Positions 14,006 to 61,487 of a stretch of 64,000 bases of DNA are shown here, in pieces; the stretch's first letter is position 1, and every line of letters begins with the position of its first letter. The stretch spans positions 45,508,001 to 45,572,000 of the forward strand of contig NC_043003.1 in assembly GCF_006345805.1 (NCBI RefSeq), written 5' to 3'. Both the position numbers and the translations under genes were made by a program. The DNA is from Octopus sinensis. Its lineage: Eukaryota. The notes below the pieces were generated by a model. That model did no database searches. It worked only from the letters and a program-made list of their open reading frames with translations, and was not told the DNA's origin.

Positions 14006-14170
14006 ACAAAAAATATAAACCGCCTTTCCGTGTTGAGTTACTTCTTAAAACGCTATACGTTCGAATTCTTTGAAGACGATATAATCGATGAAGTACCCAA
14101 CTAGCCTGAAAATGTTTTATCTCTTGTGCATGTTTAATTTATTCATAATATATATTGCGTAAGATTCAAA

Positions 14171-14769
14171 AGGCGGCAAGCTGGCAAAGACGTTAGCACG
14201 CCAGGCGAAATGCTTAGCGGTATTTCGTCTGCCGCTACGTTCTGAGTTCAAATTCCGCCGAGGTCGACTTTGCCTTTCATCCTTTCGAGGTCGATAAATT
14301 AAGTACCAGTTACGCACTGGGGTCGATGTAATCGACGTAATCCGTTTGTCTGTCCTTGTTTGTCCTCTCTGTGGTTATCCCCTTGTGGGTAGTAAAGAAA
14401 TAGGTATTTCGTCTGCCGCTACGTTCTGAGTTCAAATTCCGCCGAGGTCGACTTTGCCTGTCATCCTTTCGGGGTCGATTAAATAAGTACCAGTTACGCA
14501 CTGGGATCAATATAATCGACTTAATCCGTTTTTCTGTCCTTGTTTGTCCTCTCTGTGGTTATCCCCTTGTGGGTAGTAAAGAAATAGGTATTTCGTTTGC
14601 CGCTACGTTCTGAGTTAAATTCTGCTGAGGTCGCCTTTGCCTTTCATCCTTTCGGCGTCGATTAAATAAATACCAGTTACGTACTGGGGTCGATGTAATC
14701 GACTTAATCCCTTTGTCAGTCCATGTTTATCCCCTCTATGTTTAGCCCCCTGTGGGCAATAAAGAAATA
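14171..14769 (+). mobile_element. Three-unit SINE A array inside one degenerate TSD
   Basis: Units 14171-14402, 14403-14586 and 14587-14769; units 2 and 3 start at GGTATTTCG. Flanks are ATATTGCGTAAGATTC (14152) and ATATTGCACAAGATTC (14771). Confidence 0.9.
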
Positions 14770-14980
14770 AATATTGCACAAGATTCGAAAATGACAGATT
14801 TGTTGGTTGATTTTCTTGTTAATTTTTTTTTATATAATTGCTCTTCTATTCGACGGGCTTCTTTTAGTTTCTGTCCATGAAATCCACCCACAATGTTTGG
14901 GTCGGCCCGAGACTATAGCAGAACACCATGTCGTTGGTAAGCAAGCTACTTACCACACAGCCATTCTTATATATTATATA

Positions 14981-43516: not shown

Positions 43517-44140
43517 GGAGGCGAGCTGGCAGAATCGTTACCACGCTGGACGAAATGTTTAGCGCTATTTCGTCTGCCGCTACGTTCTGAGTTCAAATTT
43601 CGCCGAGGTCAACTTTGCCTTTCATCCTTTCGGGGTCAATTAAATAAAGTACCAGTTACGCACAGCGGTCGATATAATTGACATAATTCCCTTGTCTGCC
43701 TTTGTTTGCCCCCTCTGTGTGTAGCCCCTTGTGAGCAATAAAGAAATAAGAATTGTTACCACGTTGGACGAAATGCTTAGCAGTATTTCGCCTGTCGCAA
43801 CGGTGTGAGTTCCAATTCCGCCGAGGTCGACTTTGCCTTTAATCCTTTCGGGGTCGATGAATTAAGTACCAATAAAACACTGGGGACGATGTAATCGATT
43901 ATTCCTACCACCAACTTTCAGGCTTTGTGCCTGTAATAGAAAGGATTATTATTTTTGTTGTACTTGTTGGCCATTTCGTCTGTCTTTACGTGCTGAGTTC
44001 AAATTCTACCGAGGTTGACTTTGATTTCCATCACTTTGGGGTTGATAAAAAAAGCACCTGTTGAACACTGGTGTCGATGTAATTGATTAGCCCCTTTGCC
44101 GAAAATATCAAGCTTGCACCTGTAGTACAAAGGCTTATTA
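43517..44140 (+). mobile_element. SINE A array (43517-43748, 43749-43950, 43968-44140)
   Basis: Tail AATAAAGAAATA is joined directly to AGAATTGTTACCACG (head-internal site). Confidence 0.85.
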
Positions 44141-45796: not shown

Positions 45797-47113
45797 CATA
45801 TATACATACATACATACGTATGCAATTATGCACCGATGATCTCACGAACGCACATACACACTCTCTCTCTCTCTTTCTCTACCCCCCCCTACACACGTTG
45901 ACTCATATTTGCTTGGGCGTAAACATTCACCCAGAAAGAAATACATTTATATTTTTTTTATGCACATGTTTACCCATGTTCAGTGACATTTACAAACACA
46001 TGTCTGTGTACACATAAACATAAATACCAATATCATTCTATTTTCAAACTTGCATTAAAATACAAATATAGTGAGTTAACAGGTTTATTAGAAAATGCTT
46101 TGCTTTTTATTCTTGCTTTCTGTACCCTATGTTGAAATCCTACTGGGTTCACCTTTAAAGTACCAGTTATATACGGCAGTCTATTTCTATTGCCCAATGT
46201 CTCAGAAACCACAACACTGCCCCATGTCTGTGTCTGGCAATGTCAAAGAAATTGAGACCCGGTTTTCATTTTCTTTTTAATCTACAGAGGGACAGGCAGA
46301 GCCTACCATACACCAAGGCGGCTACTGCAAATGATGATGATGAGGAAGAGGAGGAGGATATGATGATAATGAGGATGATCACGACGATGAAGACGTTAAC
46401 ATATTGGTTTCAAATTTTGGCACAAGGCCAGCAATTTTAGGGGTGGCTGTGAGTCGATTACATCGTCCCCAGTACTCAATGGGTCCTATTTTATCAATCC
46501 TGACAAAATATGAAATGTAAAGCTGACTCGGCAGAATTTGGATCAATGCCAGCTCACCGCCGTAAGATACTAAAATATTGGTTCCTTTAAGATACCATTT
46601 ATAATTGTTGGAATTCATAGGTTACTAGTATAATAGAATTGGTATAATGTCTCAGTAAATGAATTACAGTTTTTGTTAGAAAAGTTGGAATCTCGCTACT
46701 GGCATATTTTCTCCTTCATCTATCCAGAAAACTGTGACTTAAGTACAACAGGATTCGATATTCCCATTAGCATTTAAATAATATATAATGGTGTATATTT
46801 TTACCGATTAAAATTTCGTGTTTATGTACTTTTAAAAAATTATTTTGTTATTTTGTGATGAATAAACTTGTATATACGCTTGCATGAATGCATTGTTTTA
46901 TATATCCCGGGTAATTGTCATTTGTGAAAAGGGAGGTAATATCGACCATAAGTTGACACTACGTAATGAATCAATAGTACATTTCCAGAGGATCTGGAAA
47001 CAAGAAATAAATCGGGACGCTCCTAGTCATATCACTATTCGTTAAACTTTCATCTCATTTAAAGTTCCTGACTCAGTTGATGACGCATTTCAGTCTGCTA
47101 GGCAAACAGTATC

Positions 47114-47339
47114 TATTTCTTTACTACCCACAAGGGGATAAACATAGAGGGGACAAATAAGGACAGACAAATGGGTTACATCGACCCCAGTGCGAAACTG
47201 GTACTTTATTTATCGACCCCGAAAGGATGAAAGGCAAAGTCGACCTCGGCGGAATTTGAACTCAGAACGTAACGACAGACGAAATACCGCTCGGGATTTC
47301 GCCAGGCGTGCTAACGTTTCTGCCAGCTCGCCGCCTTTT
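47114..47339 (-). mobile_element. Young full-length SINE A (tail-1) with perfect 18-bp TSD
   Basis: TGCTAGGCAAACAGTATC at 47096-47113 and 47340-47357. Confidence 0.95.
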
Positions 47340-49334: not shown

Positions 49335-50347
49335 TTATATACGTACTTGTATACATATATATGTATTACATGGTAACAAGACACATGGGTACTCCACGGG
49401 GTACTTTATAATTAGTCTTCGCAAAGTATTTTTTCACCAGAATGCTAACTAAATATTCATATAAATTACTCATTATATAGGTATACAACATATTCTTTAG
49501 TTATGCAGACTTACATAATGTAATATATGATATGATATATGCGTGAGGGCGCGGCGAGGGCGTGTGTGTGTATGTGAATGTACAAAACCTAAGTATGGAT
49601 GTAAATATACATGCATGCATGCACACAAACACACAGATAAATATATGTGTGCGTGAGTGTATGTGTGTGTGTTTGATTGTGTATGAATGTATTGTGTATT
49701 CAAATGTATAATGAATATGTATATATTTATGAATACATGTATGAGTTGCACACATACACATACACATAAATATATGTATATTTAATGCCTATTTATGCAA
49801 AATGTATATACACGTATACTATATATATATTTTTTTTAATGAATATGTGTATATATAAATATATGAGTGAGTAGCTATGTGTATATATGTATTTTCTTTT
49901 GTATGTAAATGAATATTTTTATTTGATATACATTAATACAAAAAATATAATGGATATGTGCATATGTGTGTGTTTGTGTGTATGTGTGTATGTATGTATT
50001 CACGTATGTACTAACATACATTATTATATAAGATTCAACTCACATGGGATAATAGTCTATAAATATTAATTGAATCTGTAGACGCAGAAACGCATACAAT
50101 ATAAAACAGATTTGCACATCTTTGTTCTTTTTCCATTACGAACCTGAACTGACGGGCGTGTGTTTGTTTTACACGTCAGTAAAATTGTGAATTTGCAAAG
50201 ATGCGGGATTTGTGGTTAACTAAAATCAAAATATATATACTATAGGTATGAAATTAAATGCTGAATGCCATAAATCAAATTAACATATATTATGATAAAT
50301 GTTATGTTATTTACTTTCTATATAAATATTTTAATATTTATGAGCAT

Positions 50348-51574
50348 CAGTGCAGCGAGCTGGCAGAAACGTTAGCACGCCGACACCACCCATACCCTTG
50401 GAGTCCCATCCTTCCCCTGCAAACAGTGATTCCACCCACTCCCCGCCTACAAGAAAATCAAAAACAAACACACAGAGCAAAGAAAGTCCCAAGACCCATT
50501 TTTTATGTGTTATACATGGGAAAGACATACAAAACGTTAAAAAACGGGTGTTAACCAAGTGGTACGAACACGAAGATTGTAGCTACACGGCTGTGGATAG
50601 TGAGGATACGGGTATATTGGCGAGAAGGTTTGAGGAAGAGGGTGTGTGTTGGAGGTCAGTGGAAATGAAAGATGAATGGATAGAGATGGCTAAAAGAAAA
50701 ACGAATGTTGTGATAGGAAAGAAAGGAATGCTAATTGGAAATGGGTGAAGAAGGACAGATAAGTGATGCTGGCGGATGGGGCCGTCGGTATCACTCTCAT
50801 ATATCATTTTCATATTCCATTTTGCTCATATATATGTAATTGTGATGTTCTATGTCCCCAATGTTTGTAATGTCCCCTCTATGTAGCCCCTAGTGGGTAA
50901 TAAAGAAATCAGAAACGTTAGCACGCCGGGCGAAATGCTCAGCAGTATTTCGTCTGTCGCTATGTTCTGAGGTCGACTTGCCTTTCATCCTTTCGGGTTC
51001 GATTAAATAAGTACCAGCTACACACTGTGGTAGATATAATCGACTTAATCCGTGTGTCTGTCCTTGTTTGTCGTCTCTGTGTTTAGTCCCCTGTGGATAG
51101 TAAAGAAATAGGTATTTCGTCGGCCGGAAAGCGGCGAGCTGGCAGAAACGTTAGCACGTCGGACGAATTACGTAGCCGTATTTCCTCTGCCGTTACGTTC
51201 TGAGTTCAAATTCCGCCGAGGTCGACTTTTCCTTTCATCCTTTCGGGGTCGATTAATTAGGTAACAGTTACGCACTGGGGTCGCTGTAATCGACTTAATA
51301 CTTATGCCTGTCCTTGTTTGTCCCCTCTGTGTTTAGCCCCTTGTGGGTAATAAAGAAATAGGTATTTCGTCTGCCTCTACGTTCTGAGTTCAAATTCCGC
51401 CGAGGTCGACTTTGCCTTTCATCCTTTCGGGGTTAATAAATTAAGTACCAGTTACGCACTGGGTCGATATAATCGACTTAATCCGTTTGCCTGTCCTTGT
51501 TTGTCCCCTTTGTGTGTAGCCCCTTGTGAGCAGTAAAGAAATAAGTATTGCTCTCTGTGGGCAATAAAGAAATA
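50348..51574 (+). mobile_element. Nested SINE A composite with an inserted ORF-bearing retroelement
   Basis: Outer TSD AATAT(T/C)TATGAGCAT (50333-50347 and 51575-51589); inner TSDs at 50364/50910 and 51111/51361. Confidence 0.9.
50383..50909 (+). mobile_element. 5'-truncated retroelement: 121 open codons, 3' UTR and a SINE A-type tail
   Basis: Flanked by CAGAAACGTTAGCACGCCG twice; frame open to the stop at 50748; ends GTCCCCTCTATGTAGCCCCTAGTGGGTAATAAAGAAAT. Confidence 0.8.
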
Positions 51575-51928
51575 AATATCTATGAGCATGGAAAACGGTG
51601 AACCGGCAGAGAATTTACCGTACTCCGGGAAAAATGTTTACCGGCATTTCGTCAGTTCTGAGTTCAAGTACCGATGGGGTTTGACTTTGCCTTTATCCTC
51701 TCAGATAAAATAAAATGCAGTTCTGAATTGGGATGAATGTCATCGACTAACTCTTTCCCTCAAGTTTTCTTACTCTGTGCCCACTAAATTAGTAATCAGT
51801 AATTCTAAGATTGCTCTTTGTAGTGCTGCCTAAATTGCTTCCTCTGGAGGTAAGATATAACTCGTATAAAGACATATAAGACGTGAGCGTAGGTTTCGTG
51901 TAGAAAGAGGTAAAAAAAAAACTGAAGT

Positions 51929-52288: not shown

Positions 52289-53070
52289 CCTTACTATTCT
52301 AGGCACAAGGCCCGAAATTTGGGGGGAGGGGACCAGTCGATTAAATCGACCCTAGTGTTTCACTGGTACTTAATTTATCGATCCCGTAAGGATGAAAGGC
52401 AAAGTCAGCCCCAGTGACATTTGAACTGAGAACGTAAAGACAGGCGAAATACCGCTTAAGTATTTTGACCGGCATGCTAATGATTCATTTCTACTCTAGG
52501 CACAATGCCCGAAATTTGTGGGGAGGGGGCCAGTCGATTAGATCATCCCCAGTACACAACTGGTACTTAATGTATCCATCCCGAAAGGATGAAAGGCAAA
52601 GTCGACCTCGGCAAAATCTGAACTGAGAACGTAGCGGCAGATGAAATACCTATTTCTATTTCGTTACTATCCACAAGGGGCTAAACATAGTGGACAAACA
52701 AGGACAGACAAAGGGATTAAGTCGATTACATCGATCCCAGTGCGTAACTGGTACTTAATTTATCGACCCCGAAAGGATGAAAGGCAAAGTCGACCTCGGC
52801 AGAATTTGAACTCAGAACGTAACGATAACGAAATACCTATTTCTTTACTACCCACAATGGGCTAAAAACAGAGGGGACAAACAAGGATAGAAAAACGGAT
52901 TAAGTCGATTATATCGACCCCAGTCTGTAACTGTTACTTATTTAATCGACCCCGAAAGGATGAAAGGCAAAGTCGGCCTCGGCAGAATTTGAACTCACAA
53001 CGTAACGACAGACGAAATACGGCTACGCATTTCGCCCGGCGTGCTAACGTTTCTGCCAGCTCGCCGCCTT
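52289..53070 (-). mobile_element. Four-unit SINE A array in one TSD
   Basis: Junctions at about 52486, 52650 and 52837; flanks AGAGGGTGAAAAATAAT (52272) and AGAGGGTAAAAAAATAAT (53071). Confidence 0.9.
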
Positions 53071-59659: not shown

Positions 59660-60302
59660 TATTGGTTTCAGATTGTGGCACGAGGTTGGCAATTTCAGGA
59701 GTGGGAGCTAGTGAATTACATCGACCCCAGTCCTCAACTTGTACTTATTTTTATAGAACTCAAAAGAATGAATGGAAGGCAAAATCGATCTTGGCGTAAT
59801 TCGAACTCAGAATGTAAAGACGGACGAAATGCTGCTAAGCGGTTTGCCCGGCGCGGCAACGATTCTGCCAGCTCGCAGACTTGGAGACAAGAGATATTGG
59901 TCCTAGATTTTGGCACGAGAGCCAACAATTTCGGGCGGAGGTGGAAGCTGTTTACATCGAAACCAGTGTTTCACTGGTACTTAATTTATCGACCCTAAAA
60001 GGGATGAAAAGCAAAGTCAACCTCGGCGGAATAGGAATCCGGAATGTGAAGACGGACGAAATGCCTCTAAGCAATTTTCCCGGCGTGCTAACGATTCTTT
60101 TCTACTCTAGGCACAAGCCACGAAAATTTTGGGGGAAGGGGGGGGCGGTCGATTAGATCGACCACATTACGCAACTGGTACTTAATTTATCAATTGAAAG
60201 TATGAAAGGCAAAGTCGACCTCGGCGGAATTTGAACTCAGAACGTAAAGACAGACGAAATACCGCTGCCCGGTGTGCTAACGATTCTACCAGCTCGCCGC
60301 CT
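59660..60302 (-). mobile_element. Three SINE A (tail-2) units
   Basis: A GGAGACAAGARATATTGG-like target recurs at 59648, 59883 and 60303; internal junction at about 60097. Confidence 0.85.
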
Positions 60303-61245: not shown

Positions 61246-61283
<38 letters not shown>

Positions 61284-61421
61284 TTCTTTACTACCCACAA
61301 GGGCCTAAACATAGAGGGGACAAACAAGGACAGAGAAAGTGCGAAACTGGTACTTCATTTATCGACCTCGAAAGGATGAAAGGGAAAGTCGACCTCGGCG
61401 GAATTTGAACTCAGAACGCAA
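61284..61421 (-). mobile_element. 5'-truncated SINE A inserted in (GATA)n
   Basis: (GATA)n on both sides. Confidence 0.85.
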
Positions 61422-61422
61422 C

Positions 61423-61487
<65 letters not shown>

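Follow-up and report, generated by a model that had tools for sequence, protein, structure and literature searches.

About a third of the copies of a short interspersed element (SINE) in the genome of Octopus sinensis are joined by their tail to one fixed base in the head of another copy. Scaled from the 34-35 junctions per Mb sampled to 2.72 Gb, this corresponds to roughly 95,000 junctions genome-wide. We consider it probable that the resulting arrays arise by repeated insertion of the SINE into itself, with a seamless, homology-guided joining of the 5' end, and with local duplication supplying about 15% of the units. The system offers a direct and countable way in which a dispersed SINE can turn into tandem arrays; the connection between the two is called thinly evidenced in the cited part of a study of squamate satellites (PMC10702118). 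A third of the SINE insertions are absorbed by the element's own copies, possibly a safe-harbour strategy, and repeat annotation will miscount the SINE family and misread its arrays as satellites.

Junctions between SINE tails and SINE heads

From 1 Mb sampled genome-wide, working consensuses were built for two related SINE families, A and B. The family A consensus is 233 nt long, and family B has the same head and core with a different tail. The element is short, non-coding, dispersed and present in high copy number (64,508 exact tail matches). Like other SINEs, it has a 3' tail in common with a partner LINE, and target-site duplications flanked 22/34 solo copies, against a null rate of 2.5%. 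A B-box-like word lies at consensus positions 75-85, while no strict A box was seen, and ARAGORN and Rfam scans gave no tRNA or Rfam match.

Loci picked by exact pattern lean to young copies, and all frequencies rest on the 1-Mb sample only, which consists of 100 pieces of 10 kb taken at fixed steps along 21 chromosome-scale contigs. Duplicate loci of one array, L251 (a copy of L249) and low-complexity duplications were left out, as were 7/105 tails in which the consensus end was not reached. Mapping the sequence that follows each 3' tail onto the consensus, a check suggested in the first-pass annotation, was run on the 98 complete family A tails and revealed enrichment at positions 50 and 17. 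SINE sequence followed 40/98 of these tails: 34/98 joined position 50 (site 2), 5/98 joined position 17 (site 1, at consensus position 16-17; three in exact register, the other two showing an additional tail repeat or a deletion), and one ran into an inverted SINE piece. No sense-strand join beyond positions 50 and 17 occurred among the 98 tails, so the annotated confinement to two head positions was borne out. A by-eye count of the first 100 of the 64,508 exact tails gave 36 at position 50. Genome-wide, 35,298 exact junction matches were found for site 2 and 2,467 for site 1, whereas the reversed-pattern controls for both junctions gave 0 matches. Chains that opened with a full A unit had 1, 2, 3, 4 or 5 units in 36, 14, 6, 1 and 1 cases, respectively (1 Mb). 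The arrays lacked the long runs of similar units that mark a SINE-derived satellite and consisted mostly of two or three unrelated units.

Two variants of the head were observed besides. About one-third of the A heads in a random sample belong to a subfamily with C at position 50, which reads CGTAT for GGTAT; this is possibly an escape from self-insertion, yet at L321 a LINE occupies a site of this kind. The SINE head also occurs by itself in tandem repeats (positions 1-65, period 65-67, at most 11 matches; L052-L058, G000:C3430:1377-2212), which represent the head plus the site-2 duplication, amplified.

SINE arrays in the window

The window, the 64,000-nucleotide stretch of contig NC_043003.1 analyzed here, contains at 50333-51589 a composite SINE array into which two insertions are nested, each bounded by its own duplication. 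All of its parts lie on the forward strand. Its outer target-site duplication, annotated as 14/15 identical, is present at 50333-50347 and 51575-51589. Within it, a SINE head fragment (50348-50382), which includes the left copy of a site-1 duplication (50364-50382), is followed by the 3' part of a 5'-truncated ORF1-only non-LTR element (1.67 kb at full length) at 50383-50909. This piece comprises the last 122 codons, a stop codon at 50749-50751, a 3' UTR and a SINE-type tail at 50871-50909. The remainder of the interrupted SINE unit (50910-51110; consensus 16-233, 83% identity) opens with the right copy of the site-1 duplication (50910-50928), which matches the left copy at 19/19 positions, as expected from the claim of a foreign element lying between duplications. 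The complete SINE A that had been placed between site-2 duplications was likewise found: the left duplication copy (51111-51125, equal to consensus 50-64) precedes the inner SINE A (51126-51360; consensus 1-233, 92%), and the right copy (51361-51375, 14/15) begins the SINE body behind it (51361-51543; consensus 50-233, 94%). A 31-nt remnant at 51544-51574 reads as a site-2-like start and a second tail. The inner SINE entered a pre-existing junction of a tail with site 2 and was joined with its own head kept. The ORF1-only piece is likely the most recent event, because its duplication is 19/19, it is only 0.6% from its nearest copy (last 500 nt compared) and its host unit has fallen to 83% identity. 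To the right of the composite, a degenerate SINE core fragment lies at 51655-51702.

The same junctions recurred elsewhere in the window at the places annotated. Junctions of a tail with GGTATTTC were present at 14403, 14587, 52650 and 52837, and site-1 junctions near 43750, 52486 and 60097. Those near 52486 and 60097 are preceded by a family B tail, not an A tail, and microhomology may contribute to them because the family B tail itself ends in AGAA. A typical array (14170-14770, forward strand) consists of a head and three bodies joined at position 50, with a single outer duplication and no inner one. Four units make up the array at 52294-53070 (reverse strand): A, A joined at 50, B joined at 50 and B joined at about 18. 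An A unit is followed by a B body joined at position 17 at 43517-43905 (forward), and a B unit by a B body joined at about position 17 at 59952-60300 (reverse). A solo SINE A at 47105-47337 (reverse) carries an 18-bp duplication starting with GATAC, and a 5'-truncated SINE A with an internal deletion lies on the reverse strand inside a (TATC)n microsatellite at 61281-61423. Public reads at the locus were swamped by other repeat copies, with contigs breaking inside the SINE head.

Target motifs, partner LINEs and an ORF1-only element

In the 60 elements with a readable duplication, one motif opens both duplication copies at the tail end, mostly GGT (19), TAT (15) or AGA (12), and agreement with the SINE's own sites reaches about six bases. 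The duplication starts, for which a logo had been proposed, did show recurrent motifs, but the sites are not unique to the SINE: genome-wide, insertions start their duplication at GGTAT, AGAAA or TATAT. At sites 1 and 2, the SINE carries its copies of such general targets (AGAAA and GGTAT, respectively). SINE heads hold 190/1,541 GGTAT words but about three-quarters of the junctions of a tail with GGTAT, and 139/9,311 AGAAW words but about a third of the junctions with AGAAW. An antisense GGTAC word in the SINE core gave 829 junction matches, the sense site being used about 40 times more than the antisense site. Since an antisense junction cannot arise by tandem duplication or read-through, motif-driven insertion into SINEs is shown independently of the arrays. 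Target classes were tied to the tail subfamily (46/60 in three trimers vs 27 expected; GGT vs AGA, p=1e-4).

The first-pass annotation had invoked APE-type LINE machinery, and a LINE with the SINE's tail was indeed found, nested at both sites and accompanied by duplications. The copy at L271 (2934-8327; G000:C1:62.93 Mb) has an open ORF1 (frame of 589 aa) and ORF2 (1,131 aa; APE, RT and zf-RVT), ends in the same tail as the SINE and has a duplication within a 560-bp repeat; judged by its reading frames, it is apparently intact. Partner ORF2 matched PF03372, PF00078 and PF13966 above cut-off, while ORF1 reached 17.9 bits for the zinc-knuckle family PF00098, under the cut-off of 20.8. The best solved match of ORF2 was human L1 ORF2p (E 5.5e-69). 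Among the 120 homologue matches listed for the partner LINE there was no named Tx1 reference, and the only named invertebrate match of the partner protein among the homologues listed was from Argonauta (63% over 41% of the query). These protein matches suggest that the partner LINEs are L1/Tx1-like and of the APE type.

The ORF1-only unit is 1.67 kb long with complete ends, a single 442-aa ORF and no ORF2. Its copies are up to 99% identical and end in the SINE's tail; the ORF has a weak zinc-knuckle match, and the protein is 33-38% identical to the ORF1 of the partner LINE. Like HAL1 (half-L1), as characterized in the cited part of PMC5753468, it is non-autonomous and encodes ORF1p only, but unlike HAL1 it ends in the tail of the SINE and LINE, begins with a copy of site 1 and forms chains head-to-tail. 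HAL1 is by definition derived from mammalian L1, which this element is not; it works like HAL1, and we have not filed it as such because its partner is a distinct L1/Tx1-like lineage.

Partner LINEs were found nested at SINE sites 1 and 2, and many other targets are also used. LINE and ORF1-only units follow one another head-to-tail in mixed chains, the longest with 8-9 units, and several of these chains are nested at SINE site 1. Both elements have a site-1 variant as their 5' leader, and every copy therefore adds a new target. A full-length member of a second LINE family, with an ORF2 about 70% identical, sits exactly at site 2 at L321, where host head 2-65 is kept and the duplication is 14/16. 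The idea that no LINE uses site 2, which came from finding none in true LINE tails of one tail variant, was dropped after L011 and L321. The LINE and ORF1-only guests at both sites reveal that non-homologous guests leave visible duplications. At L227, L278 and L285, the left copy of the duplication changes over, partway along the duplicated stretch, to the variant found in the leader of the incoming element.

In some LINE/ORF1-only tandems, the junction that recurs is specific to the locus and bears no relation to the SINE sites (G000:C6:112817665-112835276, C4:149553296-149558783, C5:90674683-90676412). The 560-bp repeat of L271 and L272, which by its resemblance may be Penelope-like, is young and occurs in short direct and inverted tandems, with about 250 exact matches genome-wide. 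At least 14 LINE tails abut the same base in it. The TGGCATGG target of at least 14 LINE copies was rejected as a case of independent targeting because it lies in this repeat and L272 has no left duplication.

Growth of the arrays and relation to known systems

The arrays probably grow because the SINE borrows the enzymes of L1/Tx1-like LINEs with a common tail and has two insertion targets of those LINEs in its own head, AGAAAC at position 17 and GGTATT at position 50. Because an incoming SINE cDNA is homologous to both the host head and the duplicated overhang, annealing would usually join its 5' end, which would leave a head-(body)n structure with no visible inner duplication, and each new junction would be a fresh target. 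A minority of units would come from local duplication. The duplication switch at L227, L278 and L285, together with the homology of the whole head, points to such homology-guided joining of SINE guests.

This extra step is needed since the visibly nested form is exceptional. Visible 5' junctions of nested SINEs gave 81 exact matches (23 of them in head-only tandem repeats) vs 35,298 at the 3' side, which is about 1 in 500 of exact junctions and <1% after a rough divergence correction, and 15/24 loci with a visible 5' junction were true nested SINEs. The antisense insertions outnumber them, even though GGTAT is the more common target. The rarity of full-length inner SINEs with duplications had been named beforehand as counting against self-insertion, and it was partly found. 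The claim of growth by repeated retrotransposition into the head sites is upheld by the fixed junctions and the nested LINEs and weakened by this rarity. One outer duplication around a head-(body)n chain was seen in 14/20 and 18/23 chains, with a head of the incoming type. Because the first-unit head and positions 50-66 at site 2 are also of the incoming type, the joining must replace the host head almost completely. Host alleles at positions 50-66 of site 2 showed no excess (18/135 shared, the same as permuted), and sharing stood at 3/29 vs 4/100 (p=0.19). Site-1 allele sharing (4/7 in one count) was discarded as a sign of host retention, as it may reflect a contemporaneous subfamily and local duplicates.

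Adjacent units were 9.6% apart (55 pairs) vs 11.0% between arrays (4,108 pairs), so that for the most part units of one array are not more alike than units of different arrays, as they would be under local duplication. Unequal crossover or slippage as the sole source of the arrays is highly improbable, and we regard it as refuted: most adjacent units are unrelated and many come from different families, and crossover can explain neither the recurrence of one junction at tens of thousands of loci, nor the antisense junction, nor the duplication-flanked nested LINEs. As a contributor of about 15% it is supported by the 8/55 adjacent pairs that share at least two rare variants, vs 0.4% of between-array pairs, by some long arrays that repeat one variant junction and by the head-only tandem repeats. 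The earlier statement that arrays grow not only by unequal crossover is thus correct for most adjacent units, with local duplication or conversion accounting for about 15%. It is rather unlikely that the arrays are read-through multimers, in which rare nested copies seed a junction, transcription by Pol III starts at the inner head and continues across the downstream bodies, and the resulting multimer RNA is retrotransposed whole. Such multimers would explain the guest-type heads and the single outer duplication, and the SINE consensus contains no run of four T. They would also explain the young duplications on A+B chains, which, with 24/333 mismatches compared with 24/469 for solo A and 30/213 for solo B, appear hardly older than those of solo A and also fit co-insertion. 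Yet shared masters were not in excess among 84 arrays (25 pairs vs 23.4 expected; rare-allele Mantel r=0.018, p=0.17), the distance Mantel value (r=0.155, p=0.036) is obtainable from shared age, the B bodies are near star-like (pairwise 12.3% vs 13.2% expected), and read-through cannot make antisense junctions.

Independent units behind a guest-type head, with one outer duplication of the same age, are also what single-event concatenation would produce, in which the endonuclease would nick again, either in the new cDNA (GGTAT/AGAAA) or in the duplication just made, and priming would use another RNA from the same particle; LINE/ORF1-only chains that mix several families and repeat a locus-specific junction agree with it as well. 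We judge it decidedly unlikely, as the downstream B bodies are older than the A units in front of them (6.6% vs 3.8% diverged; 20/29, p=0.003), solo B duplications are old (11/88 and 19/125 mismatches), outer targets follow the tail type of the last unit and not those of inner units, and private junction variants in LINE chains (L280, L285) read as stepwise. Counting against stepwise insertion, no age difference between first and last units was detected in A+A arrays (24 pairs, p=0.12 and 0.74).

With repeated self-insertion as the preferred reading, the octopus SINE system is a variant of known target-specific Tx1/SINE systems. The closest is that of SINEU and the Tx1-Mar LINEs of crocodilians, for which the cited text describes tandem SINEs formed by sequential insertion with the duplication sandwiched between them (Kojima 2015, PMC4494074). 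In both systems, the SINE and Tx1-type LINEs have a common target in a repeat, but this target is Mariner-N4_AMi for SINEU and the SINE's own head, with two sites, in octopus; unlike SINEU, most SINE-in-SINE junctions in octopus are without an inner duplication. The blood clam arrays of the form TSD1-(SINE)n-TSD1 (PMC11481361) resemble the octopus arrays in their full-head first unit, in later units cut at one position and in one outer duplication. They make up ~3% of SINEs, vs ~35% of tails in octopus, and include tail-truncated units, unlike octopus; the cited part of that report suggests unequal recombination and names no target-specific LINE. In the R1 arrays of Drosophila, as the cited text has it, insertion-site preference leads to tandems able to expand (McGurk and Barbash 2018, PMC5932611). 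The R1 double insertion described there matches the octopus LINE and ORF1-only chains, whereas R1 units have host duplication between them and the element is without a target of its own, unlike the octopus SINE. The squamate SINE-derived satellites are also tandem units from a fixed part of a SINE, while the octopus arrays are short and mostly heterogeneous; the wording 'target site' occurs 0 times in the cited part of that report (PMC10702118). In the literature searched, which included few subscription journals, no paper was listed that describes a SINE with its own head as the target.

It is possible, though we hold this tentatively, that target choice is inherited through RNA: a read-through trailer, made of the element's own duplication, would pair with the nicked DNA, and daughters would land like their parent. 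If this is true, the trailer of a copy in a SINE head matches every other copy, and runaway self-targeting would follow. The leads for such inheritance are the three target classes by tail subfamily, the about 40-fold difference in sense and antisense use, LINE chains that repeat a locus-specific junction whatever its sequence, and LINE copies that differ at four endonuclease residues and sit at unrelated targets. For R2Ol, R1Bm and SART1, the cited parts of two reports describe pairing of the target with target sequence carried by the read-through RNA, an annealing that improves insertion (PMC6795142, PMC7265360); those elements are strictly site-specific in rDNA or telomeres and were tested in cells, whereas the octopus trailer step is proposed by analogy with them. 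Separate endonucleases could explain the target classes, because the second LINE family sits at site 2, and an unrelated target may have been spread by hitchhiking in another repeat. The apparently intact L271 LINE makes the question of endonuclease versus RNA testable in vitro. In one case, at L322:3143 on the reverse strand, 11 nt from the leader of an ORF1-only element stand in the flank behind its tail, in place of the antisense SINE host sequence, as if a read-through trailer had been copied or matched.
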